13,385 nucleotides of DNA from Nitrososphaerota archaeon (GTDB lineage: Archaea; Thermoproteota; Nitrososphaeria; Nitrososphaerales; UBA57). Below the pieces are notes generated by a model. That model saw only the letters and a program-made list of their open reading frames with translations. It searched no databases and was not told where the DNA came from. This document shows positions 979 through 13,385 of this stretch, piece after piece. The translations under genes were made by a program, and so were the position numbers. The first letter of the stretch is position 1. Each line of letters begins with the position of its first letter. Where the stretch lies: contig JACAFS010000028.1 in the NCBI GenBank assembly GCA_013378385.1, positions 1-13,385 of the forward strand. Reading direction: 5' to 3'.

Positions 979-1275
979 TTGTCTTCATTAAAAATCGACA
1001 AAAAATCAATCGGCAAAGATCAACAAATGTATCTTAAAGCAATACCATTGAAAAATCTCGATCAAATAGCAACAATTAAAGATGAAGTCTCTCAAAACAT
1101 GATTGTAATATTGAGAATTACTCCTATAGCACAAAAAAATGTCCAAGAACTTAAAAAAGCCATTGAAGAACTATATGGATATGTGTCTTCCATTGGCGGA
1201 GATATTGTAAGACTTGGAGATGAAAGAGTTGTACTTACTCCTCCTGGTGTAAAAATCTGGAGAGGCCTATCTTAA
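979..1275 (+). CDS. sepF: DUF552 / SepF-like small protein
   Basis: YLKAIPLKNLDQIATIKDEV..MIVILRITPIAQKNVQELKKAIEELYGYVSSIGGDIVRLGDERVVLTPPGVKIW matches the archaeal DUF552/SepF core pattern as I remember it. That pattern is a conserved strand, the partner loop, then GGDI.RLG..R.VLTP..V.I. The start is ambiguous: TTG at 979 (98 aa) or the first ATG at 1027 (82 aa). Confidence 0.55.
   Translation: MSSLKIDKKSIGKDQQMYLKAIPLKNLDQIATIKDEVSQNMIVILRITPIAQKNVQELKKAIEELYGYVSSIGGDIVRLGDERVVLTPPGVKIWRGLS
1251..1255 (-). terminator. T5 run on the minus strand 17-21 nt downstream of the aCPSF1 stop, embedded in the opposing SepF-like codons
   Basis: Plus-strand aaaaa at 1251..1255 reads ccagatttttac on the minus strand. 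It is the only oligo-T run available to the psmB-aCPSF1 transcript, because the convergent genes overlap. Weak evidence. Confidence 0.25.
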
Positions 1276-3185
1276 ACTAGCTTGATTGCTTCTTGAACTT
1301 CGGGTCTATGCGTTCTTATTCTGTAAATTCTTGATATTGAATTCGCTAAATTCTCAACCTTTGTATGCTCTCCATGATTGATTATTACATTTCTTAATTT
1401 AGGCCTGAGTTTTCCAACAAATCTAATTAGTTGATTATAATCTGAATGTCCACTAAAACCATCGATCTTTTCTTTTGGACATTTTATATCTACAATCTTA
1501 ATCTTTCCATCTTGATCAACTATACTTGCTTGATTCGCTCCATCCATTATTCTTCTTCCTAATGTTCCTGCGATCTGATACGATACAAAAATTAATTTAT
1601 TCTTCTCAATTGGGGCTAATTCTTCAAAGTATCTCATTACTGGCCCTCCTTCTAACATTCCCGAAGTTGCCATAATTATTGACGGTTCATCTCTTAGCAC
1701 CTCCGCTCTTTTACTATGATGATCTATTACTGTGAAATATTCACTTTGGAATGGATTACCTTGACCTCTTGCAATACTATTCTTTAAATCACGACTTAAA
1801 AATTCTGTTGACGCTACATGTATTGCAGTTGCTTCTGAAATCATTCCCTCAAGATAAATAGGACATTCGATTAATTTCTTTTCACGCATCTGCTGATCTA
1901 ATACTAACATTATTTCCTGTGCCCTTCCAACTGCAGGACTTGGAATCAATACTTTGCCTCCCTTTTCTAATGTTGAATTTATTGAATTTACTAAATTTGA
2001 CTCCATTTGGTCTCTTGTAGGCATCATATCTGCTTTTCCACCATACGTACTTTCCATGATTAGAGTTTCTACCCTTGGATAGTTCCAAATAGTCTCATCA
2101 AAAAGTTTTGTTTTTGCGAATTTAAAATCTCCTGTGTAGAGAATATTGTGCAGACCTTCTCCAATGTGCAGATGTGAAGTTGCAGAGCCTAATATGTGCC
2201 CTGCATTGTTAAGAACTAATTTGATATCGGGAGATATGTCTGTAACCAATCCATATGGCAATGTAATTGTATGTTGAATCATTTTTCTTACATCTCTTCC
2301 TTCATACAATACTTGTGAACCCTCATGAGAATTGATCTTTACATAATCATTGTGTAGTAATGCCATCAATGATAATGTTGGATCTGTACAGTATACTGGC
2401 CCTCTGTATCCATATTTGAATAATACTGGTAGATATCCTGAATGATCTAAGTGCGCATGTGATATTACTACTGCGTCTAAGTCATCCATGTCGAAATCAG
2501 CCCAATCTAATCTTGGGTATGAATCCCATGTATTTCTAGCATTGGGCAGTATTCCACAGTCTAAAAGAATCTTACTTTCTGGAGTTGTAAGCAACATACA
2601 AGATCTTCCCACTTGGTTGAATCCTCCCAAACTCTTCAGAGTAACATTCGACGCTTGAGATAATTTTGGCCTGAATATTTCTTCTCCTACTTGTCTGTAG
2701 AACTCACTTCTAGCTTCTGATTCAGCTTGTTTAACATAATATATCGTCTTTATACTTGTTGATGGCAAATCCGACCCTTTTTTCACTATGACTTTCCAAC
2801 CAATATCTGCAGATAGTTTATGTAAATTAACTTCTGGATTATTTGTTAATTTTTGTGGCTCTAAAGCTTCTATAATTACTTCGCCAAGCGCATCGTCATA
2901 ATATATATTTCCTAATCCTACATCTTCTGCTATTGAATTTTTTAATATTTCTGTTGCATCATTTTCTTTTTTTCTAATTGATTTATCCGTTCTAATTACT
3001 AATCTTCTTTTTACAGTGTTTACAATGTCTGAAATTATGTAATTATTACTAGCTAAAAATTCGTAATTTTTTGTATAGATTGATATTCTTGGCCCTTCAT
3101 ATTCTATACGTGTGATTTCTGCTTCTGCAGGTAATGATTTTAATATTGTCGTCATTAATTCCTGTGATTTACTCATCACTGCCAT
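1272..3185 (-). CDS. fttA: aCPSF1 / FttA: archaeal CPSF73-like beta-CASP ribonuclease with N-terminal KH domains
   Basis: There is a metallo-beta-lactamase motif, VVISHAHLDHSGYLP. An N-terminal KH-like region of about 180 aa and a C-terminal beta-CASP region (GFSGHSDYNQL, INHGE) are present, and the length fits. The track ORF extends to 3233, but the ATG at 3185..3183 (MAVMSKSQ...) sits 1 nt after the psmB TAA stop (3189..3187). This removes a 47-nt overlap, so I prefer 3185. Confidence 0.9.
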   Translation of the reverse strand: MAVMSKSQELMTTILKSLPAEAEITRIEYEGPRISIYTKNYEFLASNNYIISDIVNTVKRRLVIRTDKSIRKKENDATEILKNSIAEDVGLGNIYYDDALGEVIIEALEPQKLTNNPEVNLHKLSADIGWKVIVKKGSDLPSTSIKTIYYVKQAESEARSEFYRQVGEEIFRPKLSQASNVTLKSLGGFNQVGRSCMLLTTPESKILLDCGILPNARNTWDSYPRLDWADFDMDDLDAVVISHAHLDHSGYLPVLFKYGYRGPVYCTDPTLSLMALLHNDYVKINSHEGSQVLYEGRDVRKMIQHTITLPYGLVTDISPDIKLVLNNAGHILGSATSHLHIGEGLHNILYTGDFKFAKTKLFDETIWNYPRVETLIMESTYGGKADMMPTRDQMESNLVNSINSTLEKGGKVLIPSPAVGRAQEIMLVLDQQMREKKLIECPIYLEGMISEATAIHVASTEFLSRDLKNSIARGQGNPFQSEYFTVIDHHSKRAEVLRDEPSIIMATSGMLEGGPVMRYFEELAPIEKNKLIFVSYQIAGTLGRRIMDGANQASIVDQDGKIKIVDIKCPKEKIDGFSGHSDYNQLIRFVGKLRPKLRNVIINHGEHTKVENLANSISRIYRIRTHRPEVQEAIKLV

Positions 3186-3186
3186 T

Positions 3187-3858
3187 TTATTTTCTACCAG
3201 AAAGATCTTTGAGTATTTCTTGTTTCTCTTCAAGTGAATATTCTTTTAGAATGTCTTTTTTTATTGTAACGATATTTAGGCCATCTCCTGTTCCTGAATT
3301 TCTTAAAATAGCCCCATAAACCGCTCTTATAGCAATCGGTAAAGCTTCATCTACACTTAATGCTTGTTTAAATTCACTCTCAAGTATTCCATATGCAACG
3401 GGAGATCCACTTCCAGTTGAATAATATTCTTCTTTTGTTAGTGTTCCAAACATGTCTATGTTGTATAATTGAGGCCCATCCATATCTACTCCGCCTACTA
3501 AGATGTCTGCATAATATGGCGATACTTGATGATTTGCTGAGAAAAATAAATTTGATGTTAATCTTGCTGCCGATGATATTGGTAATTTCTGAAATTTTTC
3601 CAATTTAAAAATATTAGACTGATACTTTAATTGATCAACTACATATTGAGCATCCGCAACACCGCCCGCAATTGTTAATGCACAATGATCATCAATTACT
3701 GCAATCTTGTTTACTGTTCTACTTGCAATATAATATCCCATTGAAGCACGCGTATCGGTCGTCAATACAATTCCATCACTGCATACTAGACCTACGGTGG
3801 TTGTGCCATGAACTTGATTCTTTATTTCGTTTTCTTTATACAATAGAATAATCTCCAA
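3187..3858 (-). CDS. psmB: 20S proteasome beta subunit with short propeptide
   Basis: The propeptide ends ...NQVHG and is followed by the catalytic N-terminal TTTVGLVCSDGIVLTTDTRAS. Length (223 aa) and the remaining sequence are typical of archaeal PsmB. The first canonical start in the ORF is TTG at 3858..3856; there is no in-frame ATG before the Thr1 site. Confidence 0.92.
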   Translation of the reverse strand: MEIILLYKENEIKNQVHGTTTVGLVCSDGIVLTTDTRASMGYYIASRTVNKIAVIDDHCALTIAGGVADAQYVVDQLKYQSNIFKLEKFQKLPISSAARLTSNLFFSANHQVSPYYADILVGGVDMDGPQLYNIDMFGTLTKEEYYSTGSGSPVAYGILESEFKQALSVDEALPIAIRAVYGAILRNSGTGDGLNIVTIKKDILKEYSLEEKQEILKDLSGRK

Positions 3859-4023
3859 AAAAATTGGATACTTTATGTTAATAAATCAGAGTAAATAAAT
3901 CTTCTTAATTGTTTATATTCCGTCTAATTCACCTTTTTTTTATTTTTATTATTCCGGTCACTAGAATCTATTTGCTGGGTCTGACTTAATACCTAGTTTG
4001 GATTATCTATTCAAAGGGGAGAA
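3859..4023. promoter_or_regulatory. Divergent intergenic region (psmB operon leftward, MoxR cluster rightward) with several A/T-rich TATA-like elements
   Basis: On the minus strand, TTTATTAA (plus 3878..3885) lies about 23 nt upstream of the psmB TTG. On the plus strand, the run tttttttttatttttattatt (3934..3953) is followed directly by TTCCGGT (3952..3958). A GGGGAG Shine-Dalgarno-like element lies at 4016..4021. No exact TSS can be assigned from sequence. Confidence 0.3.
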
Positions 4024-4803
4024 GTGTTGAGTGCGTCTGTAAATTCTATTTTACTTCAGGTTGTTCTTATATCTGTAGCTATTTTGACAAGTTCTTTTGT
4101 TGTATTGAATTATCCTGAACCAAAACCTCCAGATCCAGAGTTATTGCCTATGCATGCTATCACTATTGAAACCTGGACTCATGATAAAAATATTGGAGAG
4201 AGATATGTGACTACTCCTACTTCTGGAATTAATGTTGTGTTCTATTTCTGGAATGATATCGGTGCAACTGATTCAATTGCAGTAACTGGATCTACTAATG
4301 GAACTGGCCAAGTTACCGTTCTTGTTGAAGAAGGAACTTATGATTTAAAAATTGGAGAATGGACTACTGAAACCTTAGACATTTTTGAGAATATTACAAT
4401 TAGATCCGACCACTATGACCTGGAAATACGCCCTAATTCAATTGAAATAGAAGCATTATCTGCAAGTTGGCAAGTTACATCTGATGATATAATTTTTGTA
4501 TCTTATACTAGTACTTTTGATTTTGAAGTTAATTTAGATTCAATAAAGATGTCCGGCCTTGAATTGAATAATGTTGCCTGTGAACTTACTGACGATGCAG
4601 AAGCTGCAGTTCCTGTTGGCGGACCTGACGATCTATATGCATCGGGTAATAATTGTGAATTAGATGCATTATTGTTTCCATATTCTGACTGGTCTGACAG
4701 TTTTCGAATTCCTGCAGGAATAACTATTCCTTGGTCAGTAGCTAAACTCAATCCAGAGGTTGTTCTAAATGTTTCTTATACGGAGACTGGTGTCGATGAG
4801 TGA
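4024..4803 (+). CDS. Hypothetical surface protein: N-terminal TM anchor, Pro-rich linker, beta-rich ectodomain (carboxypeptidase-regulatory/Ig-like feel)
   Basis: The hydrophobic segment ILLQVVLISVAILTSSFVVL is followed by PEPKPPDPELLP. The rest is acidic and rich in Thr, Ser and Val, with strand-like periodicity (VTGSTNGTGQVTVLVEEGTYDLKIG). The start is GTG 4024 or TTG 4027, after GGGGAG. This is the first gene of the co-directional cluster. I recognise no family. Confidence 0.6.
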   Translation: MLSASVNSILLQVVLISVAILTSSFVVLNYPEPKPPDPELLPMHAITIETWTHDKNIGERYVTTPTSGINVVFYFWNDIGATDSIAVTGSTNGTGQVTVLVEEGTYDLKIGEWTTETLDIFENITIRSDHYDLEIRPNSIEIEALSASWQVTSDDIIFVSYTSTFDFEVNLDSIKMSGLELNNVACELTDDAEAAVPVGGPDDLYASGNNCELDALLFPYSDWSDSFRIPAGITIPWSVAKLNPEVVLNVSYTETGVDE

Positions 4804-5224
4804 TCCTTTTACTGAACTGATTATCTTACTAAGACCATATAACACTGTATTGGCTGCAGGTCTGTCTATTCTTTTGCTTTCTGAATTCCTTCTATTCCGT
4901 AATAATATTGTCAGAGAAAAAATTGTTAAACAAAAGATTCAATTTACTAAAAAATACGATGAAAAGTTTCTTAAATTATATAAAACACTGAAAGTATCTG
5001 CTTTTACATCTGGTCTGGATCAAAGAGATTCTTATACTATAAGAGAACTAACCGAATTTCTCATTGGTAAAAATCCTGCAGATGCCGACATTCTTCATTC
5101 TATTCTTTCTTCAATGGAGAAATACGCTTACGGTAATCAGGAAATAGATAAATCTGGCTATAATCTTATTTCTAAATGGATGTCTAATCAAAAAACTTCT
5201 AGTTTAGCGAGGGCGAGAATATGA
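4796..5224 (+). CDS. Small single-pass membrane protein with DUF4129-like cytoplasmic helical domain
   Basis: I prefer the ATG at 4796 (MSDPF...), which overlaps the upstream stop in ATGAGTGA. The track start at 4769 would lie deep in the previous gene. The TM segment is TVLAAGLSILLLSEFLLF. The tail FLKLYKTLKV..GLDQRDSYTIRELTEFL....ADILHSILSSMEKYAYGNQEI follows the DUF4129 pattern as I remember it: a short helix, then T-x-R-E, then a terminal E..(R/K)Y(A)YG. Confidence 0.5.
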   Translation: MSDPFTELIILLRPYNTVLAAGLSILLLSEFLLFRNNIVREKIVKQKIQFTKKYDEKFLKLYKTLKVSAFTSGLDQRDSYTIRELTEFLIGKNPADADILHSILSSMEKYAYGNQEIDKSGYNLISKWMSNQKTSSLARARI

Positions 5225-6192
5225 TAACTGAAATTAAAGATATATCTGATATTCAAAAAGCAGCAAATGCACTTGAAGCTGAAATTTCACAATATGTTGT
5301 TGGATGGCCTAATGTTATCAAGTTTCTAGCTATTGGCGTATTTACTGGTGGCCATATACTTATCGAAGGAGTTCCTGGAACTGCAAAAACATATCTTGCT
5401 AAAATCTTCTCTGATACTATAAATCTATCTTTTCGTAGAATTCAATCTACTCCTGATTTGATGCCATCTGATATTACCGGTTCACATATTTTTAATGTAA
5501 AGACTCTTGAATTCGATTTTCACGCAGGACCTATTTTCTCTAACATCGTTCTTATGGATGAAATTAATCGTGCTCCGCCAAAGACCCAATCTGCATTGCT
5601 TGAAGTTATGCAAGAAGGACAAGTAACAATTGACGGTAACACCACTCAACTTGAACAACCATTTATGATAATAGCTACCAAGAATCCAATTGAATTTGCA
5701 GGTACATTTCCTTTACCTCCTGCACAGTTAGATCGATTCATGGCACGTTTAATCATGAACTATCCTTCTAAGGATGCATGGATTGACATACTTGAAAAGA
5801 AAAATCAACGCGGCGAATCTGTAGAAGTCGAACAGGTTCTTGACGCATCCTCTGTAATTTCTGCACGAAAGTTAATTCAAGATCAAGTTAGTTTAGATGA
5901 CAACGTTTTAAGTTTTATTTCAAATTTGTGTAACACAACTAGAGATAATTCTCGTATCATACTTGGAGCAAGCCCTACTGCTTCGGTTTCTCTCCTCAAT
6001 GCATCAAGAGGTTATGCAGCAATAATTCGAGGAAGTGACAAGGTTACTACCGAAGATGTAAAGGCCGTTGCATTCGATGTTCTTAACCATCGTTTAGTAA
6101 TTCGTGATCTTGAAGAAGGTCAGGATACTAAAGATTATGGAATAACTAAAATTAATGATCTACTACAATCCAGTATGGAGTCTATACAGTGA
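5221..6192 (+). CDS. moxR: MoxR-family AAA+ ATPase, paralog 1
   Basis: Walker A is GVPGTAKT, Walker B is VLMDEINRA, and the sensor-1 region is IIATKNP. AQLDRF carries the Arg finger. RIQSTPDLMPSDITG is the MoxR-specific motif. The lid motif is GASPTAS (Thr where the family has Arg). The ATG overlaps the upstream stop (ATGA). Confidence 0.9.
   Translation: MITEIKDISDIQKAANALEAEISQYVVGWPNVIKFLAIGVFTGGHILIEGVPGTAKTYLAKIFSDTINLSFRRIQSTPDLMPSDITGSHIFNVKTLEFDFHAGPIFSNIVLMDEINRAPPKTQSALLEVMQEGQVTIDGNTTQLEQPFMIIATKNPIEFAGTFPLPPAQLDRFMARLIMNYPSKDAWIDILEKKNQRGESVEVEQVLDASSVISARKLIQDQVSLDDNVLSFISNLCNTTRDNSRIILGASPTASVSLLNASRGYAAIIRGSDKVTTEDVKAVAFDVLNHRLVIRDLEEGQDTKDYGITKINDLLQSSMESIQ
5965..6096 (+). 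repeat. Near-identical nucleotide tract shared with paralog 2 (copy A)
   Basis: 132 nt with 6 mismatches against 6937..7068. The core 5992..6096 against 6964..7068 is 103/105 identical. This was hand-aligned codon by codon. Confidence 0.85.
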
Positions 6193-6195
6193 TTT

Positions 6196-7170
6196 ATGAT
6201 GACCGATAATATTAATTCACTTTCTGATATTACAAAAATGTCTGAAGATATCCGTTCTGAGGTCAATAAGTCAATTGTCGGTCTCACTAATCATATTGAT
6301 ACTCTTACCTTGTCTCTATTGACAGGTGGACATGTCTTACTTGAGGGATTACCTGGTACTGCGAAAACATTTTTGGCCGTATCCTTTTCAAATACATTGT
6401 CCCTTGAGAACAATCGTATTCAATCCACTCCTGATATGATGCCTGGTGATGTAACGGGCACTAGAATTTACAACCCTAAAACTCTTGAATTCGATTTTCA
6501 CGCAGGACCTATATTTGCTAATATGGTTATTGTCGACGAAATTAATCGTGCTCCTCCTCGAACACAAGCTGCTTTTCTTGAAGCAATGCAAGAAGGGCAA
6601 GTTACTGTTGATGGAGAAACATCAATATTAGACCAACCATTTATGGTTCTTGCAACTAAAAATCCCCTTGAATACGAAGGAACTTTTCCATTATCTCCAA
6701 CACAATTGGATCGTTTTATGTTCCGTATTAATCTTAATTACCCAACTCTGGACGAAGAGATCGAAATTCTTCGTAATAAAACTAAATCTTTAGATTCTTC
6801 TAGTCGGATAATCTCTAAAGATCAAATTCTCCAGGCTCGAAAATTCCTTATTGATAATATGTCAGTTGACGATGGAATTTCTGAATATATTTCCAGCATC
6901 GTTCAATCTACAAGAACACAAGAAGGTATAATTATTGGAGCAAGCCCTACTGCTGCTGTATCCCTCCTCAATGCATCAAGAGGTCATGCAGCAATAATTC
7001 GAGGAAGTGACAAGGTTACTACCGAAGATGTAAAGGCCGTTGCATACGATGTTCTTAACCATCGTTTATTGATAAAACAATCTGATATTGCCGATTCAGG
7101 CACTGATGCCGAATCAAGTAATACTGCAGAAAAAATTATTACTGATATCATTCAATCTGGAGGCACCTAA
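6196..7170 (+). CDS. moxR: MoxR-family AAA+ ATPase, paralog 2
   Basis: Walker A is GLPGTAKT and Walker B is VIVDEINRA. Other motifs are LATKNP, TQLDRF and RIQSTPDMMPGDVTG. The lid motif is GASPTAA. The gene starts 3 nt after the paralog 1 stop. Confidence 0.9.
   Translation: MMTDNINSLSDITKMSEDIRSEVNKSIVGLTNHIDTLTLSLLTGGHVLLEGLPGTAKTFLAVSFSNTLSLENNRIQSTPDMMPGDVTGTRIYNPKTLEFDFHAGPIFANMVIVDEINRAPPRTQAAFLEAMQEGQVTVDGETSILDQPFMVLATKNPLEYEGTFPLSPTQLDRFMFRINLNYPTLDEEIEILRNKTKSLDSSSRIISKDQILQARKFLIDNMSVDDGISEYISSIVQSTRTQEGIIIGASPTAAVSLLNASRGHAAIIRGSDKVTTEDVKAVAYDVLNHRLLIKQSDIADSGTDAESSNTAEKIITDIIQSGGT
6937..7068 (+). repeat. Near-identical nucleotide tract shared with paralog 1 (copy B)
   Basis: See copy A. 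Both differences in the 105-nt core are nonsynonymous (tat/cat Y/H and ttc/tac F/Y). Confidence 0.85.
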
Positions 7171-7172
7171 TT

Positions 7173-8156
7173 ATGATTAACTCTTTGAAATCTACTGACG
7201 ACATTAAAAATCTTAGAGATTCACTCAAGACGGAGATTGGAAAACATGTTGTAGGACTTGATAATATTGTTGATTCATTAATAATCTCAATACTTGTTGG
7301 AGGCCATGTTCTTATCGAGGGATTTCCTGGCACAGGTAAGACCTTAATGGCTAATTTATTCAGTAAATCTATAGAATCTACTTCGAATAGAATTCAATCT
7401 ACTTCTGACCTAATGCCATCTGATATAACCGGTACTCGTATTTACAATCCTAAAGAACGAGAATTTGAATTCCGTTCCGGTCCTATATTCTCTAATTTTG
7501 TTATTGTCGACGAAATTAATCGTGCTCCTCCTAAGTCACAATCCGCTTTATTGGAATGTATGCAAGAAAGACAAGTTAGTGTTGAAGGCATGACTAGAAA
7601 AATGGACGAACCATTTATTGTTCTTGCAACTAAAAATTCTATCGAACTAGAAGGCACTTATCCTCTTCCAGAAGCACAATTAGATAGATTCTTATTCAGA
7701 TTAATTATTGATTATCCTGATGCAGCAAGTGAGGCAGAAATAATCAGACGTAAGATTGGTCCATCTGTTGAACTACATCCTATAGTTTCAAAACAAGCAA
7801 TTCTTGAAGGAAAAGATATGATTCATACAGGTATTAATGCAGAGAAAAACGTTCTCGAGTATATTTCTTCAATAGTTCAAAACACTTCAAATATTCCTAA
7901 AGTCACTCTTGGCGCAAGTCCACGTGCATCTGTCGCTTTATTGTACGCATCTAAAGGCTATGCAGCTGTTACTGAAGGTCGTTCATATGTAATTCCTGAC
8001 GATGTCAAAGCTGTCGCATTTGATGTACTTAATCATCGATTAATCTTACAACAGAATGCACTTCTTGATCTAGATGACGGTGATAGTAATTCTGCTACCG
8101 AATATCTGAGAAAATTAATCAAGGGCTGTATAGACGAAGTAATTGTTCCAGTTTGA
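7173..8156 (+). CDS. moxR: MoxR-family AAA+ ATPase, paralog 3 (most canonical motifs)
   Basis: Walker A is the canonical GFPGTGKT and Walker B is VIVDEINRA. Other motifs are LATKNS, the canonical LPEAQLDRF, and the lid motif GASPRAS followed by EGRSYVIPDDVKAVA, which matches the family consensus GRdyV.PdDV. GGAGG lies at 7159..7163, 9 nt upstream of the ATG. Confidence 0.9.
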   Translation: MINSLKSTDDIKNLRDSLKTEIGKHVVGLDNIVDSLIISILVGGHVLIEGFPGTGKTLMANLFSKSIESTSNRIQSTSDLMPSDITGTRIYNPKEREFEFRSGPIFSNFVIVDEINRAPPKSQSALLECMQERQVSVEGMTRKMDEPFIVLATKNSIELEGTYPLPEAQLDRFLFRLIIDYPDAASEAEIIRRKIGPSVELHPIVSKQAILEGKDMIHTGINAEKNVLEYISSIVQNTSNIPKVTLGASPRASVALLYASKGYAAVTEGRSYVIPDDVKAVAFDVLNHRLILQQNALLDLDDGDSNSATEYLRKLIKGCIDEVIVPV

Positions 8157-8162
8157 TTTAAT

Positions 8163-9395
8163 ATGAAGAAACATATTCGACTTCTTATTGGTTTCTTTGG
8201 ATTGATGACTATGTGTAGTCTGGCTTTATTGCCTAATGCTACTCTTGCTATGCTTTCTGTTATGCTTGCTTTGTGCATTAATCTTGTTTTGTTCAAATAC
8301 CTAAAACCATCAAACAATTTCGAGGTTACACGTGTTTTTGATAAATACCAAGTAATGCCTCCTGCTGATATTAATGCTTCATTGGAAATGAAATATAATG
8401 GTAGATTCCCTGCAAACGCATCTGTTGAATTTGATTGTCAAAGTTTAGGTCTAAATATTAACACCGGTACTGTTGTTTTCCAACCTGGTCAAAAATACGA
8501 CATCTCAAAAACTTTTGTCGCAGATCGCCGTGGCGTTCATAAAATCTCAGCCACTAAAGTTGTTGTTAAAGACTGGCTGTTATTATCTGGAATTACTATT
8601 ACATCTAACGACGAAGCAGAAATTCTTGTACTTCCTCACATTTATCCATTCGAAACATCTCCTCAAACATCTGCCGCCGGATTATTGGGAGTTTCATCAG
8701 CAGTTAAACAAGGTAGAAGTAGTGAAGTTTGGGGCATTCGTGATTACCAACCTGGAGATGATTTTAAAATTATTTCATGGAAAGCTATGGCTAAATCTCC
8801 TGATCATAAACCCAAGTCGAAGATTACTGCTGGAGAAGAGGGACAGGCAATTACAATTGTTACTGATATAGGCAAAGACAGCGAACTTCCTAACGGAGAC
8901 CAAATTTCGCTTGATATATCTGCAGATCTTGCAGCATCTTTATCTTATAATTTCATTAAACGTGGAACTCGAACTGGCTTGGTATTGTTTGATACTCGTA
9001 CTCGAGCTGTCTTAAAACCGGCACGTGGCGAAACTCATGTCGATTCATTATTGCGTAATCTTGCAAAAGTACAACCTTCTCAAGATAAGTTCCTTATTAC
9101 AAGTTTTACAAATTCTTATCTAGAACTCTCTGCTTCTGAATTCGGAAATAGTTTCATTCTAATTCTTACTCGTACTGATGATAGATTGATTGAATCATAT
9201 CTGTCAAAGCTGAAATCTAGCCGTGATCTAATTATCATACTGATCTATAACGAAGATAATTATGAGAGGGCACAACAAATACAAAAAACAGTCGAAGAAA
9301 ATGGTGTTCAAATGATTCTTACAAATCATAGTTCTGTACTAGACACAATGAAAAAAATGGAGGAGTGGTCATATGCTACCGTTAAGAGAACTTAG
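8163..9395 (+). CDS. DUF58-family protein (N-terminal TM hairpin, beta-sandwich, degenerate VWA-like C-terminal domain)
   Basis: Two N-terminal hydrophobic helices are present (LLIGFFGLMTMCSLALL and ATLAMLSVMLALCINLVLF). The family signature is EVWGIRDYQPGDDFKIISWKAMAKS, matching (E/D)f.G.R.Y.pGD..r.I.WKa.Ar. The following ITIVTDIGKDS sits where VWA domains carry the DxSxS MIDAS motif, so the site looks degenerate. Position directly after moxR is the canonical arrangement. Confidence 0.85.
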   Translation: MKKHIRLLIGFFGLMTMCSLALLPNATLAMLSVMLALCINLVLFKYLKPSNNFEVTRVFDKYQVMPPADINASLEMKYNGRFPANASVEFDCQSLGLNINTGTVVFQPGQKYDISKTFVADRRGVHKISATKVVVKDWLLLSGITITSNDEAEILVLPHIYPFETSPQTSAAGLLGVSSAVKQGRSSEVWGIRDYQPGDDFKIISWKAMAKSPDHKPKSKITAGEEGQAITIVTDIGKDSELPNGDQISLDISADLAASLSYNFIKRGTRTGLVLFDTRTRAVLKPARGETHVDSLLRNLAKVQPSQDKFLITSFTNSYLELSASEFGNSFILILTRTDDRLIESYLSKLKSSRDLIIILIYNEDNYERAQQIQKTVEENGVQMILTNHSSVLDTMKKMEEWSYATVKRT

Positions 9396-10212
9396 AACAT
9401 ATATTTCTGCACTTTCCATTGCTCCAATCGCTGTAATGATTGCTAATCCTGTCGTACTGAATGCATTTGTATCTTATTTGTCATCTATTGCCTTCTTCAG
9501 CGCATTCGGATTAATCGCTGTATACCTTATGCTTAAACAAATAGGTTTCATCAAATCATTAGGTGCAAATCAACAAGTTTTCTTTGAAAGTTTACTTTTG
9601 GTACTTCCGATTATCATCCCTATGTTTACCGTTCTAACTACTCAAAATCCTGCAGATTTCATCGCTGCATTTCTTGCTTATTTGGTAATAGGAACTGTTG
9701 TTTCTCTTTCTCGTGTTGTTGTTGGAGCTGGTGTCGGGGCATTTGGTAAAGTTCTCTACTTCTTTTTTGCATACATGATGGCATTGATGGTTTATGCAGG
9801 TTGCGTTGCAGGAGCTATTACTGGCGAAACATTCTCCTTATTATTAGCATTCGATCAAATTGCAGGAATAGCAACTTATCTTGGTTATGAAGGACATCCT
9901 ATCGAACTTCCTCTTATTGAATATGTAAGGCTAGGAATGGCATTTGCCATCCCGGGTATTACTTTCTCTGCATTAGCAGCACAAGTGAGATTGTCAGAAG
10001 TTCGTGATAATCCTGGGGCAGAATCAAAAATGGTAAGCTCCTTGCGATCATCTGTAGCACTTCTTACTTTAGGCAGTGCCATATTATTACTTCCAGTTTA
10101 CTTAATTTCTATCGCGATAGTGAATTTCGCTCCATATCTTGTAACAATAATTCCTCCTGTTCTTGTAATGGGATTCATTCTACTTGTATTATATTTCGTG
10201 GAGAGGGACTAA
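9373..10212 (+). CDS. Polytopic integral membrane protein (about 7-8 predicted TM helices), unknown family
   Basis: 279 aa, almost entirely hydrophobic segments separated by short loops. A strong Shine-Dalgarno GGAGGAG lies at 9359..9365, 7 nt before the ATG. The gene overlaps the DUF58 gene by 23 nt. Confidence 0.7.
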   Translation: MLPLRELRTYISALSIAPIAVMIANPVVLNAFVSYLSSIAFFSAFGLIAVYLMLKQIGFIKSLGANQQVFFESLLLVLPIIIPMFTVLTTQNPADFIAAFLAYLVIGTVVSLSRVVVGAGVGAFGKVLYFFFAYMMALMVYAGCVAGAITGETFSLLLAFDQIAGIATYLGYEGHPIELPLIEYVRLGMAFAIPGITFSALAAQVRLSEVRDNPGAESKMVSSLRSSVALLTLGSAILLLPVYLISIAIVNFAPYLVTIIPPVLVMGFILLVLYFVERD

Positions 10213-10213
10213 A

Positions 10214-12247
10214 TTGCGTTCATCAATTATTATTCTCTTGTTATTTGTTTCGACTATTGTATTGTTACCTGTATCATTTTCTCAGGTTGACGATCGTGTA
10301 TGTCCTGCATCTGCCGCTTGTGAAGAACCTTTTGACCCCTCTCAATTGACGAATATGATGCCTGATTTCGCTAATCTTGGTTTTAACGAAGAAAGTATGT
10401 CTATTCCAGCTTCTGGAAGTACTATCGTAGTAGGTCCTGGTGAAGAATTATTTATTCTTGCTGAAAAACAAATAATTATTACATTGGGAGAACCTGGCGA
10501 AGATTTAATGTTCCGTGGAATTGTTCCAGGTCGTCGAATTAATCAATTGGAGTTGCCCGTAGTTGGCGTTGGAGAAACTATGTTGGTTGAATTAACAATG
10601 TTGGAAGTCACCGCAGACGAACTTGCAAATGCTGGTTTTCCAGCTGATAATCCTATATTTGCAGGTATTAATGCTAGAGATGATGTCGATCAGGTTGCTA
10701 ATTGTTTAAGTTTACAAAATCGTATTGAAGGACTCCGTAAAAATATTGGAGAGAGAAATTCAGATATTGTTGATTTACGTAATCAACCAGGCAATTTTCA
10801 AAATCAAACTATCCAAAGACTAATAATAAGAATGCAGAATGACAATGACCGAGATAGAGAACTTCTCCCCACACTTGATGCACAATTTGAAATTCTTCAG
10901 TGTGAACGCGTTCCTAGAGATGAACAGGAAAGACCTGAAGCAAGACCAACAGACCTATCTGAAGAATCATTTCAACGATCACATATATTAGTTGTAGGGG
11001 AAGGCAGTCCTTCTGGATTTATCCCCAATTATCAATTGACTGGCAGTAATCTATTCATGGAAAAATCTGAAACCCTCGAATTAGCAATCCTTGAACCGAC
11101 TGATGGCTTTCATATTATAAGTGGCTCATATGGCGCTATTGAATATCCTAGTGTTATTTCTCCTGGATCTGAATATATAATTAGATACAATAATACCGTT
11201 GAAGATTTTGATCCATCTGGCGAAAGTATTGAATTTGTTCTTGAAACTACAAGAAAGTTGAGAATCGATTCTCATACTGCAGATCTTACTACTAGTATTG
11301 AGAAAAATGGAACAATTGCTTCCACTACACTTAATCTCCCTAATGCTCAAACTGGGTATTTTCAGATAAACATCCCTGAGATAGGCGAATCTGAAAACGG
11401 CGATTCACCATTACAGTATGGCCTACATTTCTTCCATATCCACTCTAATTTCGTAGGAATCGGAACTCTTGACACATATCTTCCAGTTTATGTTGTTCCA
11501 TCTGGGGAGTATAATCTTGTAGGATATTCTATGGCATCTGAACCTGATTTACGTATTAATCTTGCTGATTATGTGCCAAATGCCCCTGAACTTTTCATAA
11601 TTAGTAAATCCAATGACGTAACCACGTTTATTGAATCTCAGGAAATCAACATTCCTGTAGCTGTTATCTCTGTATCTGATAATCTTGGACCAATTAATCT
11701 ATACGAAATTGTTCTCGACGCCGATTTCATTACAAGTTCTTTTGATGGAAAAATGTATGTCTTGGCCAATAGCGCCACTGATACTTTTTCAATATCTAGC
11801 CTGAAAATTTTTAATTTTATCACGACTGATTTTAATATTATTGATAGCACTGACAAAACTAAAACATACAACAATAAATTGGGATTTCCTATTAATGTAG
11901 ATCTCATGCTCGACATCAATACTATTGATATTTCTGTTTTCGATGAATTTGAACAACCATTCATTGACGGTCAAATAATTATACAAAAAGCAGATGAAGA
12001 ATTCACTGCCGACCTTTTGGATATTCCTCGATTAAAGCTTCCCGACGGAAATTATAAAATTACTCATATTGTGGAAGACGAAATAAAATCCGAGCAAGAT
12101 CTATCTATTAGTAGTTCTGGATTGATTCAATTTAATGTTAAAACATTGTTGTTGGAAGATCAAATTCTTACTATTGCAATAATTATAGAATCTATATTGA
12201 TTGCATTCTTCACATTTAGAATAATGTCAAAGTACTTTAAAGGATAA
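10214..12247 (+). CDS. Large secreted/surface protein with N-terminal signal peptide, central charged coiled-coil-like segment, beta-rich body and C-terminal TM anchor; unknown family (BatD-like topology)
   Basis: I prefer the TTG at 10214 (MRSSIIILLLFVSTIVLLPVSFSQ...). It lies 1 nt after the upstream TAA and is preceded by GGAGAGGG at 10200..10207. The track start, TTG 10184, adds 10 non-signal-like residues inside the previous gene. The C-terminus is ILTIAIIIESILIAFFTFRIM followed by SKYFKG. A charged segment runs about NRIEGLRKNIGERNSD...DEQERPEARP. Confidence 0.7.
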   Translation: MRSSIIILLLFVSTIVLLPVSFSQVDDRVCPASAACEEPFDPSQLTNMMPDFANLGFNEESMSIPASGSTIVVGPGEELFILAEKQIIITLGEPGEDLMFRGIVPGRRINQLELPVVGVGETMLVELTMLEVTADELANAGFPADNPIFAGINARDDVDQVANCLSLQNRIEGLRKNIGERNSDIVDLRNQPGNFQNQTIQRLIIRMQNDNDRDRELLPTLDAQFEILQCERVPRDEQERPEARPTDLSEESFQRSHILVVGEGSPSGFIPNYQLTGSNLFMEKSETLELAILEPTDGFHIISGSYGAIEYPSVISPGSEYIIRYNNTVEDFDPSGESIEFVLETTRKLRIDSHTADLTTSIEKNGTIASTTLNLPNAQTGYFQINIPEIGESENGDSPLQYGLHFFHIHSNFVGIGTLDTYLPVYVVPSGEYNLVGYSMASEPDLRINLADYVPNAPELFIISKSNDVTTFIESQEINIPVAVISVSDNLGPINLYEIVLDADFITSSFDGKMYVLANSATDTFSISSLKIFNFITTDFNIIDSTDKTKTYNNKLGFPINVDLMLDINTIDISVFDEFEQPFIDGQIIIQKADEEFTADLLDIPRLKLPDGNYKITHIVEDEIKSEQDLSISSSGLIQFNVKTLLLEDQILTIAIIIESILIAFFTFRIMSKYFKG

Positions 12248-12735: not shown

Positions 12736-13385
12736 ATGAATCATAGGTATTGGCTTATATCTATACTAGCAGCTTTGCTGTTAGTAACTTCAAGTTGGGG
12801 ATACGCTGCTCTTTCAAATAGTAATGATACAGCAGTAGTTCCTTCAGTTGAAGCGGTTGGTCCAGGAAATTGGGAATGGATCAATTATGGACCTGATGGC
12901 GGAAGTTTCAGCCCTCAAACACAGATCAATAAGGAAACAGTTGCATATCTGGAAATGAAATGGATTTATCCATTCCAATCAGATGTTGAAACCACTTTCC
13001 CTAACTCTGTGCAAGAAGGTGCTTCTGCTCCCCCTATAATTGTTGACGGCGTTGTTTATGTCGCAAAGAACAAACAAGATGTTGTCGCAGTTGATGCAAA
13101 GACAGGCGAACAAGTATGGTACAGTGATGTAATCACTCAAGCTGCCGACTTTGACGCATGGCTTGCAGAATTTCCTTACATGCAAGGACAGTATGGACAT
13201 ACTCATGCAATTAATTATTACGCCGACCGTAACGAGCTTATCTTGAGCTCCGCACCATGTTGGTTGAAATCATTAAATGCTGAAGATGGAACTATGGCAT
13301 GGCAATTAGGACCTGAACTCCTTTGTGGTACACAAGCTGAAATGGGTAATCCATTAGGCGCAATGGGTACATTCAAGAGTAAAGG
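12736..13385 (+). CDS. Secreted PQQ-dependent dehydrogenase-like beta-propeller (quinoprotein family), 3' end outside the window
   Basis: Not in the supplied track because it has no stop in the window. My hand translation shows 216 codons with no stop. The signal-like N-terminus is MNHRYWLISILAALLLVTSSWGYAA. Next comes NWEWINYGPDGGSFSPQTQINKETVAYLEMKWIYPF...APPIIVDGVVYVAKNKQDVVAVDAKTGEQVW. This matches the N-terminal consensus of quinoprotein alcohol/glucose dehydrogenases: W..yg.d...fSp..qIn..nv..L...W, then P.v.dG.mY, then v.AlDa.TG...W. Confidence 0.75.
   Translation, partial: MNHRYWLISILAALLLVTSSWGYAALSNSNDTAVVPSVEAVGPGNWEWINYGPDGGSFSPQTQINKETVAYLEMKWIYPFQSDVETTFPNSVQEGASAPPIIVDGVVYVAKNKQDVVAVDAKTGEQVWYSDVITQAADFDAWLAEFPYMQGQYGHTHAINYYADRNELILSSAPCWLKSLNAEDGTMAWQLGPELLCGTQAEMGNPLGAMGTFKSK

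Follow-up and report, generated by a model that had tools for sequence, protein, structure and literature searches.

MoxR ATPases are encoded in several described arrangements. In the TgpA type (moxR-DUF58-tgpA of Pseudomonas aeruginosa), an MRP-type MoxR and a DUF58 protein with a TM hairpin accompany a transglutaminase protein, and DUF4129 forms the C-terminal end of TgpA proteins. In the Bat/Mxa type (moxR-DUF58-batABCDE; mxaRSACKL), the MoxR and DUF58 core is followed by membrane-anchored envelope proteins, among them BatD, which has a signal peptide and a C-terminal TM. The original function of MoxR relates to a PQQ enzyme, with MxaR (MoxR) and MxaS (DUF58), together with MxaACKL, serving methanol dehydrogenase. 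The targets of MoxR systems are often encoded outside the MoxR locus. To our knowledge, the characterised MoxR ATPases (RavA, CbbQ and NorQ) are all homo-hexamers. In Mg-chelatase BchI/BchD (ChlI/ChlD), from the AAA+ clade common to MoxR, a competent AAA+ subunit is paired with a degenerate AAA+ paralogue linked to a VWA domain. The actinobacterial MoxR2 cluster presumably has a free-standing DUF4129 gene nearby or upstream. The initial annotation of the locus studied here counted the TgpA and Bat arrangements as the two normal ones and missed a third annotated one, the actinobacterial Rv3689-Rv3695 type, in which MoxR and DUF58 are preceded by a membrane protein and DUF4350 and followed by two proteins with several membrane passes (SpoIIM-like and RDD); this MoxR2-type block is co-regulated in M. 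chelonae (PMC8191103).

The window, i.e. the whole stretch of 13,385 nt that was analysed, contains eight plus-strand ORFs, g1 to g8, between positions 4024 and 12247, all of them where they had been annotated initially. They encode, in this order, an anchored β-rich ectoprotein, a DUF4129-like single-pass protein, three MoxR ATPases, a DUF58 protein, a polytopic protein and a large protein with a signal peptide and a C-terminal anchor. The junctions from g1 to g8, calculated with the annotated starts, were reproduced to the nucleotide (-8, -4, +3, +2, +6, -23 and +1 nt), and the starts of g2 (ATG 4796) and g8 (TTG 10214) match the N-termini of their orthologues. A GGAG or GAGG element is located 4-20 nt 5' of six of the eight starts, compared with 6.5% of cluster positions (binomial p ~2e-6), including a GGGGAG element 4-9 nt upstream of the GTG start of g1. 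The earlier description of GGAG-type Shine-Dalgarno elements before the internal genes is therefore correct in general but fails for g6, which has no such element upstream, and at g4 the element is 19 nt from the start. A Pfam scan of the eight proteins detected AAA_3 in g3, g4 and g5, DUF58 in g6 and a weak DUF4129 match in g2. Membrane topologies were assigned from TM predictions and the positive-inside rule applied to the sequences, and hydropathy agrees with those proposed earlier.

Table 1. Features of the eight-gene cluster and of the region preceding it
Feature	Position	Strand	Description	Evidence
Intergenic region	3859..4023	.	Divergent; presumed cluster promoter region	Between psmB (-) and g1 (+)
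g1	4024..4803	+	259-aa β-rich ectoprotein, N-terminal anchor (N-in, C-out)	One TM, residues 9-27
g2	4796..5224	+	142-aa single-pass protein, C-terminal DUF4129-like domain	DUF4129 below gathering score
g3	5221..6192	+	MoxR (MRP-type) AAA+ paralogue 1	AAA_3 E 1.5e-60 and AAA_lid_2
g4	6196..7170	+	MoxR paralogue 2, sister to g3	AAA_3 E 2.7e-56
g5	7173..8156	+	MoxR paralogue 3, ancestral-like	AAA_3 E 5e-59
g6	8163..9395	+	DUF58 protein with N-terminal TM hairpin and cytoplasmic VWA-like domain	DUF58 54.5 bits
g7	9373..10212	+	279-aa all-helical polytopic protein, ~8 predicted membrane helices	AF2 model
g8	10214..12247	+	677-aa type-I membrane protein	Signal peptide and C-terminal TM (nt 12152-12238)

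In its layout the cluster resembles the Rv3689-Rv3695 type of M. tuberculosis more closely than TgpA or Bat. In both, the MoxR and DUF58 genes are surrounded by genes of membrane proteins, those upstream encoding anchored extracytoplasmic proteins and those next to DUF58 encoding polytopic partners, and both lack a transglutaminase and BatA/B. However, neither DUF4350 nor SpoIIM/DUF95 or RDD is detectable here, the ATPase is triplicated, and g1, g7 and g8 appear, from the searches described below, to be families of Thaumarchaeota only. The cluster also shares with the TgpA type an MRP-type MoxR, a TM-hairpin DUF58, a DUF4129 module and a large extracytoplasmic domain, but it has neither a transglutaminase core nor Cys-His-Asp, its DUF4129 module is a separate protein, and polytopic g7 is unrelated by sequence to its TgpA-type counterpart. 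The Bat/Mxa type has the same MoxR-DUF58 core followed by membrane-anchored envelope proteins and possibly the same link to a PQQ enzyme, through a dehydrogenase gene neighbouring the cluster; unlike it, the cluster has no VWA BatA/BatB (MxaC/MxaL), no TPR proteins and no BatD match. The Bifidobacterium PFNA cluster (pkb2-fn3-moxR-duf58-tgm) likewise keeps the gene of a β-sandwich (FN3/Ig-like) surface protein in constant order with moxR and duf58 (PMC8430577). It differs in its Ser/Thr kinase, its transglutaminase and its single ATPase, and homology to g8 or g1 was not detected.

Related loci belong to Thaumarchaeota wherever they are named in the genome and metagenome scans, and the eight-gene unit (class A) is carried by uncultured marine Thaumarchaeota with a heterotrophic lifestyle and by organisms related to them. 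Its order and close junctions recur across 18 contigs from metagenomes and 11 species-level genomes, far more than chance would allow. Every class A locus that is complete enough has the identical gene order, and tight junctions are conserved too. Two loci, L005 and L086, are apparent two-MoxR exceptions; the metagenome contig L086 (no Ns) has only one g3-type and one g5-type gene, so g4 may be dispensable, unless the assembly collapsed. The cluster also stays intact where the flanks are completely different, namely in a MAG from groundwater and in metagenome contigs related to it. For instance, the order is kept in L008 between unrelated housekeeping genes (HAD, TrxR and UDG upstream; DapA, DapB and LysA downstream), and in L090 and L093 with none of the flanking genes of the window.

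Class B loci (L095-L101) contain six genes, g1, g2, one MoxR, DUF58, g7 and g8, and thus combine a single MoxR with the same four accessory families (HMM scores of 66-168 bits for g1, g2 and g7 and of 336-350 bits for complete g8). In the tree this MoxR, with the motif GGSPRGS, is sister to the g5 clade. These comparisons show that the eight-gene unit descends from a six-gene g1-DUF4129-MoxR-DUF58-g7-g8 cluster by triplication of the ATPase gene. The architecture, initially considered unplaceable, is no isolated oddity but a version of this single-MoxR cluster of Thaumarchaeota in which the ATPase is tripled. The seven-gene class C clusters have only the g8 family in common with the eight-gene unit. 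Between the window and L006, identity is 54-63% for MoxR, DUF58 and g7 and 28-33% for g1, g2 and g8, rates that would fit a cytoplasmic and membrane core with exposed clients.

The three ATPases form three orthologous groups, each conserved separately, with g5 clustering with the single MoxR of the six-gene loci; the genes are always adjacent, with spacers of 0-12 nt in loci with measured junctions. All three retain intact Walker A and Walker B motifs and an intact Arg finger (in g3, Walker A at 5368-5391 and Walker B at 5557-5571). They differ at the sensor-2 position, which is Thr in g3 (GASPTA, 5965-5982) and g4 (GASPTA, 6937-6954) and Arg in g5 (GASPRA, 7911-7928), whose nearest solved structure is 2R44 (E 2.5e-73). 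The Arg of g5 aligns with the sensor-2 Arg in the GDAR motif of Cdc6. Thr is found in 24 of 24 g3/g4-type sequences (GASPTA or GGSPTA, GASPTG, GASATA), and Arg in 15 of 15 g5-type and 12 of 12 single-copy MoxR sequences; canonical MoxRs also keep this arginine. The triplication reported initially is real and unusual, as all 60 of the 60 other MoxR-containing DUF58 loci have exactly one MoxR. In MoxR proteins (clade 7), sensor 2 acts in trans, on the ATP site of the neighbouring subunit (PMC6987120).

The g6 protein scores well above the Pfam cut-off for DUF58 (23.4 bits), has TMs at residues 5-23 and 26-44 and, between residues 259 and 356, weakly matches the VWA domain of the anthrax receptor. 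Its MIDAS position reads D-I-G-K-D-S (8865-8882) instead of DxSxS, so that clients may not be bound through a metal in the usual way. D-x-G-x-D is conserved in the DUF58 proteins of classes A and B. The degenerate MIDAS had thus been read correctly, but it is not special to this cluster: such degeneracy is common among the DUF58 proteins sampled, including the other thaumarchaeal and some bacterial ones. The DUF4129 identity of g2 is weakly indicated by its profile match (E about 8e-4, 7.5e-4; 19.9 bits against a cut-off of 24.8), and the same region matches DUF4129 in seven of eight orthologues, with the conserved motif YD..F...S.T.RE...L..K.P...L...S.E..YG. The domain is predicted to be cytoplasmic from the K/R-rich stretch that follows the TM. 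At the same position in class C, the 182-aa protein of L019 matches DUF4129 above the cut-off (E 2.4e-9), while that of L012 has no DUF4129 match at E<=1; hhalign relates g2 to its class C counterpart weakly (E 3.4e-3).

No Pfam or NCBIfam family was found for g1, g7 or g8, either in the window proteins or in their orthologues. The g1 family, with no Pfam match in eight orthologues, comprises only 12 homologue clusters, all thaumarchaeal; g1 carries a Pro-rich stalk (YPEPKPPDPE, 4111-4140) and weakly matches the protein encoded first in class C clusters (hhalign E 3e-4) over a CarboxypepD_reg-like β-sandwich (Pfam E 5e-4 in L012). The best-conserved accessory protein is g7, with the family signature ..IP.ITFSALAAQVR.. 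(9961-9990) and family-wide invariant residues N25, D161, R225, Y51, Y103, Y134 and Y141. It has no Pfam match, and its AF2 model (pLDDT 73.5) consists of helices throughout and has no PDB fold match with E<1. Adjacent pairs of g1-like and g7-like genes, with g1 homologues directly upstream of g7 homologues, also stand alone without MoxR in L073, L075 and L076. Homologues of g8 fall into only 28 clusters, and no Pfam domain occurs in any of them; hhalign (99%, E 2e-18) shows full-length homology between g8 and the protein encoded last in class C clusters. The AF2 model of g8 (pLDDT 78) has a β-sandwich at residues ~50-131 and a β-sandwich array at 254-641, separated by a lineage-specific helical-hairpin insert (residues ~133-250, nt 10610-10963).

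Two alternatives question the cluster as a unit of its own kind. The eight genes could be mere neighbours, independent units packed tightly in a streamlined genome, given that HMT genomes are small and gene-dense (PMC7300363) and that unrelated flanking genes in the window are tightly joined too, for instance by a 17-nt overlap at 434-450. This is hardly credible, because the order holds down to 38-39% DUF58 identity in class B and the cluster moves as a block between genomic contexts. The earlier proposal of one operon is thus borne out to the extent that the cluster is, by its gene arrangement, one conserved operon-like unit, and the eight genes are probably co-transcribed and translationally coupled. 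Alternatively, this could be a TgpA or Bat system in disguise, with g7 as the N-terminal TM bundle of TgpA, g2 as its C-terminus, and a transglutaminase or BatD/VWA hidden in g8 or g1. The DUF4129-like domain of g2 and the signal peptide and C-terminal TM of g8, as in BatD, point that way. However, neither a transglutaminase nor a BatA/B-type VWA or DUF4350 is detectable in the four accessory proteins or their orthologues; profiles of Transglut_core, TgpA_N, BatA, BatD, VWA and TPR gave nothing at E<=1 in window proteins or at E<=10 in 37 window and orthologue sequences scanned singly, in line with the initial reading of no transglutaminase Cys motif and no VWA BatA/B. No Cys is conserved across the g7 or g8 families, the β-sandwiches and hairpin of the g8 model matched only generic pilin, adhesin and Ig arrays of the PDB in Foldseek (TM-score <0.15), and an exhaustive HMMER search with the g7 profile among 1.84 billion representatives returned 13 clusters, all of its own family. 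We consider a disguised system very improbable. Of TgpA modules split across genes, as initially suggested, the DUF4129 part in g2 stands, but g7 has no detectable kin beyond its own tiny family.

On balance, we lean towards a membrane-tethered, chaperone-type MoxR/DUF58 unit that was built from a triplicated ATPase, is probably hetero-oligomeric and would remodel an envelope complex of g1, g7 and g8. Judging by co-conservation and motif asymmetry, g3, g4 and g5 would assemble into one hetero-hexameric ring, in which only the ATP sites completed by g5 would be fully canonical, giving a built-in asymmetric ATPase cycle. The ring would dock at the cytoplasmic membrane face on the VWA-like domain of DUF58, held by the TM hairpin, and the DUF4129 domain of g2 would probably assist docking. 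NorQ/NorD, CbbQ/CbbO and RavA/ViaA indicate how the unit probably works, with a hexameric AAA+ ring of clade 7 engaging a VWA-type adaptor; in the MoxR-class NorQD ring, a VWA finger of the adaptor enters the pore and the adaptor-bound target is remodelled, which offers a mechanistic precedent (PMC13036017). These systems are homo-hexamers with canonical-MIDAS adaptors, whereas the present cluster has three paralogues and a membrane-anchored adaptor with DxGxD. BchD fuses its degenerate AAA+ to a VWA domain; here, the Thr-bearing paralogues stand alone and keep both Walker motifs, and a gene of its own encodes the VWA-like protein.

The paralogues could instead form three separate homo-hexamers, each with its own client or partner (g1/g7, g8 or proteins encoded elsewhere). 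All three could bind and perhaps hydrolyse ATP, since each has Walker A/B and an Arg finger. The characterised RavA, CbbQ and NorQ are homo-hexamers (PMC6987120, PMC13036017), and L086 has only two paralogues. We regard this as unlikely, although worth serious attention: a ring made up solely of g3 or of g4 would lack the sensor-2 Arg at every site, yet both are strongly conserved across the class A sequences examined, and the three constantly adjacent genes share one DUF58 adaptor and one DUF4129 protein. A further reading takes the cluster as a maturation system for the membrane-anchored PQQ dehydrogenases of the lineage, inserting metal or cofactor on the outer face as MxaR/MxaS and MxaACKL would, in keeping with the founding MoxR function. 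A PQQ-dependent dehydrogenase gene (12736-13385 in the window; PF01011 E 1.5e-36; full length in L011) starts 147 nt past the gene next downstream of the cluster, an adjacency kept in the marine subclade (L002, L004, L005, L011 and L086), and HMT genomes encode 4-19 such dehydrogenases, mostly membrane-anchored and highly expressed (PMC7300363). We find this reading improbable, as a convergent tRNA-binding-domain gene separates cluster and dehydrogenase, L008, L090 and L093 have the intact cluster with no dehydrogenase gene nearby, and a Pfam scan of window proteins detected no MxaA/C/K/L-type VWA proteins in the cluster.

For the favoured mixed ring, ATP hydrolysis would drive the assembly, maturation or conformational switch of a membrane/envelope complex, by analogy with NorQ/NorD, CbbQ/CbbO, RavA/ViaA and MxaR/MxaS. 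The members of this complex would be polytopic g7 with the ectoprotein g1 as its partner, and g8, the large protein with the Ig-like array. It is the gene neighbourhood by itself that suggests g1, g7 and g8 as clients; g1 and g7 may form a basal module that exists also without MoxR, and since relatives of g8 are seen only beside MoxR-DUF58 (classes A, B and C), g8 is most likely the ATPase-dependent client. A ring tethered by DUF58 and acting on surface proteins, as proposed in the initial annotation, is plausible. What is new in this cluster is the triplicated ATPase with the sensor-2 Arg kept in one copy only, its six-gene ancestry and the g1/g7 pairs that occur free of MoxR.

The cluster is a bona fide MoxR(MRP)-DUF58 system, a kind already known; what is new is a conserved three-paralogue ATPase with a sensor-2 asymmetry, together with three envelope protein families. 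Its eight co-directional genes encode a β-rich ectoprotein (g1), a DUF4129-like protein (g2), three MoxR ATPases (g3, g4 and g5), a DUF58 protein (g6), a polytopic membrane protein (g7) and a signal-peptide protein with a C-terminal anchor (g8). The ORFs and junctions of the initial annotation were reproduced exactly (-8, -4, +3, +2, +6, -23 and +1 nt with its preferred starts), and the two non-trivial starts, ATG at 4796 for g2 and TTG at 10214 for g8, match orthologue N-termini. The Shine-Dalgarno elements it had described are present as GGAG or GAGG 4-20 nt 5' of six of the eight starts, but g6 lacks one and that of g4 lies 19 nt away; against a background of 6.5% of positions in the cluster, their enrichment at starts reaches p ~2e-6. 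Hydropathy agrees with the topologies it had assigned, namely one N-terminal TM in g1, one TM in g2, an N-terminal hairpin in g6, a polytopic g7, and a signal peptide plus C-terminal TM in g8.

With g6 as the query, one genome per GTDB species was scanned; full-length orthologues at 51-97% identity were retrieved in 11 species, all of them Thaumarchaeota MAGs, and every such locus on a long enough contig carries the identical eight genes in identical order. A metagenome scan added 18 further eight-gene loci (L077-L094; L-numbers denote related loci from either scan). Junctions at related loci are at most 25 nt or overlapping. The flanks are syntenic in the marine clade and in L006 and L009. 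At L008, from a groundwater MAG, the intact cluster has unrelated neighbours, namely genes for HAD hydrolase, thioredoxin reductase and UDG at one end and for DapA, DapB and LysA at the other, and the related metagenome loci L090 and L093 lack any flank gene of the window. Since gene order is kept in these three loci despite the different flanks, the eight genes move together as one block, strong evidence that they form a functional unit. Between the window and L006, MoxR, DUF58 and g7 are 54-63% identical, while g1, g2 and g8 are 28-33% identical.

An apparent two-MoxR variant at L005 was rejected, as the loss reflects a 100-N scaffold gap. The marine metagenome contig L086, free of Ns, has just two MoxR genes, one of the g3 type and one of the g5 type; it is otherwise of the same content and has the same flanks, and its close relative L094 has three MoxR genes. 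Either a natural deletion or the collapse of a repeat during assembly accounts for the two-MoxR state of L086.

HMMs built from orthologue alignments were used to sort the thaumarchaeal loci into three classes. Class A has three MoxR genes, in the layout of the window. Class B, from deep-ocean metagenomes with a GC of 37-39% (L095-L101), has the order g1-g2-MoxR-DUF58-g7-g8 with a single MoxR and a DUF58 protein 38-39% identical to g6; each of the four accessory proteins has a clear homologue there. Class C (L012, L013, L018, L019, L105, L106, L109, L110 and L112-L115) comprises seven genes: those for an anchored β-protein, a TM+DUF4129 protein and a small TM protein are followed by one MoxR and DUF58, then by a polytopic protein (~9 predicted TM segments) and finally by a signal-peptide/C-anchored protein of ~575 aa. 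The last of these is a full-length homologue of g8 (hhalign 99%, E 2e-18), the first matches g1 weakly (E 3e-4), and homology of the polytopic protein to g7 is not detectable. Classes A and C coexist in one MAG in two cases (L006 with L012, L007 with L013).

The three ATPases match AAA_3 (PF07726) with 189-203 bits (cut-off 27) and AAA_lid_2 with 50-59 bits, and g5 matches PDB 2R44 with E 2.5e-73. Walker A (GxPGxAKT), Walker B (DEINR) and the Arg finger (LDRF) are intact in g3, g4, g5 and all orthologues. The triplication noted in the initial annotation is distinctive, as 60 of 60 other DUF58 loci with MoxR carry a single copy. With mutual identities of 48-56%, g3, g4 and g5 form three orthologous groups in neighbour-joining trees, and no complete class A locus lacks a member of any of them. 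The three groups make up a clade apart from the class C MoxRs; g3 is sister to g4, and the g5 group to the single MoxR of class B. The lid motif G-x-S-P-R is shared by g5 (GASPRA), 2R44 and the MoxRs of classes B and C, and its Arg aligns with the GDAR sensor-2 Arg of Cdc6. This Arg is replaced by Thr (GASPTA or close variants) in all 24 g3- and g4-type sequences examined, the window included. The residue concerned is R251 in g5, T253 in g3 and T252 in g4. Tree placement and lid-motif distribution together mark the duplication as derived and the g5 type as ancestral-like. Clade-7 AAA+ proteins, MoxR among them, receive sensor 2 in trans from the adjacent subunit (PMC6987120). Because the sensor-2 Arg is present in g5 and missing from g3 and g4, the latter two are MoxR members with an atypical active-site complement, retained though neither can contribute a canonical sensor 2.

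In the sensor-1 region, class B MoxRs and all three class A paralogues have ATKN(P/S/A), and class C thaumarchaeal MoxRs and the MoxR of a Thermoproteota MAG (L072) have ATQNP; the Q-to-K change is common to every MoxR that accompanies the g7 family.

The DUF58 assignment of g6 is secure (PF01882, 54.5 bits against a gathering score of 23.4; TMs at 5-23 and 26-44), and a weak match to the anthrax-receptor VWA domain supports a VWA-like fold. Its MIDAS position, singled out earlier as degenerate, indeed reads D-I-G-K-D-S rather than DxSxS...T...D, but this is not distinguishing: D-x-G-x-D is kept throughout class A and B DUF58, even the first Asp is missing in class C, and among sampled bacterial DUF58 some are degenerate (e.g. 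DIGRPM) and others keep DxSxS. The DUF4129 match of g2 (E 7.5e-4, 20 bits) falls below the 24.8 cut-off, with seven of eight orthologues matching the same region; the class C counterpart in L019 exceeds the cut-off (37.5 bits, E 2.4e-9).

The view that no described MoxR arrangement fits was borne out for three of them, as the cluster lacks the defining features of the TgpA, Bat/Mxa and actinobacterial DUF4350 types. The TgpA type is set apart by its transglutaminase core (Cys-His-Asp), the absence of which had been suggested from motifs: Transglut_core has no match at E<=10 in 37 window and orthologue sequences of g1, g2, g7 and g8, and no Pfam match to the TgpA_N/DUF3488 TM bundle was obtained for g7 or 10 orthologues. 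The Bat/Mxa type is built from BatA/BatB (MxaC/MxaL) VWA proteins with a BatA_N anchor, TPR BatC/E and BatD. Likewise as proposed, BatA/BatB-type VWA proteins are missing, with VWA, BatA, BatD and TPR unmatched in all eight proteins (Pfam, NCBIfam), while the genuine Bat-like locus L066 gives clear BatA/VWA_2 matches with the same tool. This Acidimicrobiales DUF58 locus, being of the Bat/ABC type, was rejected as a DUF4350 comparator. The actinobacterial DUF4350/DUF4129-MoxR-DUF58 type (PMC8191103) resembles the present cluster in general layout; its DUF4350 ectoprotein and SpoIIM-like/RDD polytopic partners are unmatched here, and orthologues of g1, g2, g7 and g8 give no signal for VWA, BatA/D, DUF4350, SpoIIM, RDD or transglutaminase. 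A β-sandwich surface protein is likewise encoded with MoxR-DUF58 in the Bifidobacterium PFNA cluster, which, however, adds a kinase and a transglutaminase (PMC8430577). An anti-phage defence system with a MoxR-like ATPase was rejected, since PADLOC gave only weak partial AAA matches for the ATPases (E >= 3e-5) and nothing for the other five proteins. In the literature searched, no description of a MoxR cluster of Thaumarchaeota/Nitrososphaerota, this one included, was found, and searches for DUF4350/DUF4129/DUF58 returned gene tables only.

The cluster defines three unannotated envelope protein families, g1, g7 and g8. None was assigned to a family in Pfam, NCBIfam and PADLOC scans of the window proteins and of the individual orthologues, and no match among PDB sequences was obtained with profiles of g8, g1 or g2. 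In databases, g7 and g8 are named 'hypothetical protein' and the ATPases 'AAA family ATPase' or 'MoxR-like ATPase'. For g8, none of 28 homologue clusters is annotated; its AF2 model (pLDDT 78, pTM 0.66) consists of a β-sandwich, a long helical hairpin, a β-sandwich array and a TM helix, for which Foldseek against the PDB returned only generic pilin/adhesin/Ig arrays with TM-scores <0.15 and no papain-like fold. The hairpin insert, a surface feature that evolves fast, is confined to the subclade of the window and partly present in L009; the orthologues in L006-L008 and L010 lack it. The g7 model (pLDDT 73.5) has about eight membrane helices and no Foldseek match in the PDB below E=1. An exhaustive HMMER search of 1.84 billion representatives yielded 13 clusters, all of the g7 family itself, in which N25, D161, R225 and several Tyr are the invariant polar residues. 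Neither the g8 nor the g7 family has a family-wide conserved Cys. The g1 protein has 12 homologue clusters; an internal relationship to g8 was rejected, hhalign giving a probability of 1%.

Distant g7 homologues (38-41% identity) occur at three loci with no MoxR, DUF58 or DUF4129 gene nearby (up to 10 kb per side, L075 ending ~200 nt downstream). A g1 homologue lies immediately upstream in L073 (E 6e-18) and L076 (E 2e-30), and in L075 a shorter, possibly truncated g1-like ORF ends ~240 nt upstream (E 1e-13). Class A clusters are also present in the MAGs that contain two of the three loci. Within class A and B clusters, g1 and g7 enclose the block g2-MoxR(s)-DUF58, and g8-type proteins were found in MoxR-DUF58 clusters only. 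This distribution suggests that g1 and g7 form a basal membrane module to which the ATPase block and g8 would be an ATP-dependent addition. Small cupredoxin genes stand beside two of the pairs.

The cluster is flanked by archaeal housekeeping genes (see table), in a window of low GC (32-38%) for which Rfam and tRNA scans were empty. The SepF-family gene is present in all syntenic loci. The longest form of the presumed CPSF-like ORF (TTG at 3233) overlaps the end of the ORF upstream by 47 nt; its true start is probably an internal ATG near residue 17, as orthologue matches begin at residue ~16-21 in some loci. In class A (marine clade, L006, L009) the proteasome-β-like gene adjoins the cluster and is transcribed divergently from g1, and a paralogue ~32-33% identical to it lies co-directionally just upstream of the first class C gene in the same MAG lineage. 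The presence of such a gene beside both classes may be coincidence.

Location of the cluster, its flanking genes and related features
Feature	Location	Strand	Remarks
Eight-gene cluster, g1-g8	window 4024-12247	+	
DSP phosphatase gene			upstream flank
PUA-domain protein gene			upstream flank
SepF-family protein, 98 aa	window 979-1275	+	PF04472, E 1e-12; between PUA-domain gene and presumed CPSF-like gene
Presumed archaeal CPSF-type β-CASP nuclease, 653-aa ORF	window 1272-3233	-	read from sequence
Presumed proteasome β subunit, 223-aa ORF	window 3187-3858	-	read from sequence
MoxR with ATKN-type sensor 1 (example)	window 7173-8156		
g8 helical-hairpin insert	window 10610-10963		residues ~133-250, bracketed by Cys164 and Cys230
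tRNA-binding-domain protein gene			downstream flank, convergent
PQQ-dependent dehydrogenase, N-terminus	window 12736-13385	+	PF01011, E 1.5e-36; last 650 nt, runs off end
PQQ-dependent dehydrogenase, full length	L011:12589-14892		767 aa, signal-peptide/TM-anchored
Class C-associated proteasome-β-like paralogue	L012:4141-4740		
Class C-associated proteasome-β-like paralogue	L013:1281-1880		
Class C-associated proteasome-β-like paralogue	L106:3243-3785		
Stand-alone g1-like + g7-like pair	L073:9264-10837		
Stand-alone g1-like + g7-like pair	L076:8370-10023		
Stand-alone g1-like + g7-like pair	L075:9175-10843		
Small cupredoxin gene	L073:8715-9107		sequence appearance
Small cupredoxin gene	L076:10025-10300		Pfam Copper-bind
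Two MoxR genes (g3-type, g5-type)	L086:6022-7994		

The close relatives of the source are marine 'Thaumarchaeota/Nitrososphaerales' MAGs (ATL, ALOHA, ASW2, UBA223, Langseth). Together with the low GC and the PQQ dehydrogenase, they match it to the heterotrophic marine Thaumarchaeota (HMT) as described in PMC7300363. The dehydrogenase gene adjoins the cluster, after the convergent tRNA-binding-domain gene, throughout the marine subclade and not in groundwater relatives; L002 and L005 have two tandem copies.

By the positive-inside rule, the g2 DUF4129 domain, the g6 VWA-like domain and the short C-terminal tail of g8 are predicted to face the cytoplasm, and the ectodomains of g1 and g8 the outside. 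In NorQ/NorD a VWA finger enters the AAA+ pore (PMC13036017). By analogy with this pair and further ones of MoxR and VWA proteins, the ring would engage g6 at the membrane, and ATP hydrolysis would then assemble or switch a g7/g1/g8 complex. The sensor-2 pattern points to a mixed g3/g4/g5 ring in which competent and impaired sites are predetermined; the main alternative is that each MoxR paralogue forms separate homo-hexamers. Our joint reading, which we regard as possible but rather doubtful as a whole, is an obligate hetero-hexameric MoxR ring in which only ATP sites completed in trans by the g5 sensor-2 Arg fire. This hard-wired asymmetric motor would act via the DUF58 hairpin, the DUF4129 protein and g7 on the assembly or conformational switching of the lineage-specific surface proteins g1 and g8 across the archaeal membrane, and might serve the PQQ-dehydrogenase-based energy metabolism of HMT. 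The evolutionary rates, with MoxR, DUF58 and g7 conserved and g1, g2 and g8 divergent, fit the proposed picture of ring and clients. Two points make a role of the cluster in maturing PQQ dehydrogenases attractive: a PQQ enzyme is what the founding MoxR/MxaR system serves, and the marine clade has a dehydrogenase gene beside the cluster. This adjacency is, however, lost in L008, L090 and L093. To our knowledge, a hetero-hexameric MoxR ring, if true, would be the first described.

MoxR/DUF58 is, as far as we know, one of the most widely distributed AAA+ systems of prokaryotes whose mechanism is not known. The expansion of one ancestral ATPase gene to three, with a clean and conserved loss of the trans sensor-2 Arg in two of them, constitutes a natural experiment, and through this asymmetry subunit order and site usage in a MoxR ring become directly testable. 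The occurrence of the g1/g7 module with and without the ATPase narrows the search for the MoxR-DUF58 client. HMT are abundant in the dark ocean, uncultured, and have genomes of ~1 Mb; that an 8.2-kb cluster is kept in genomes of this size argues for an important envelope function.
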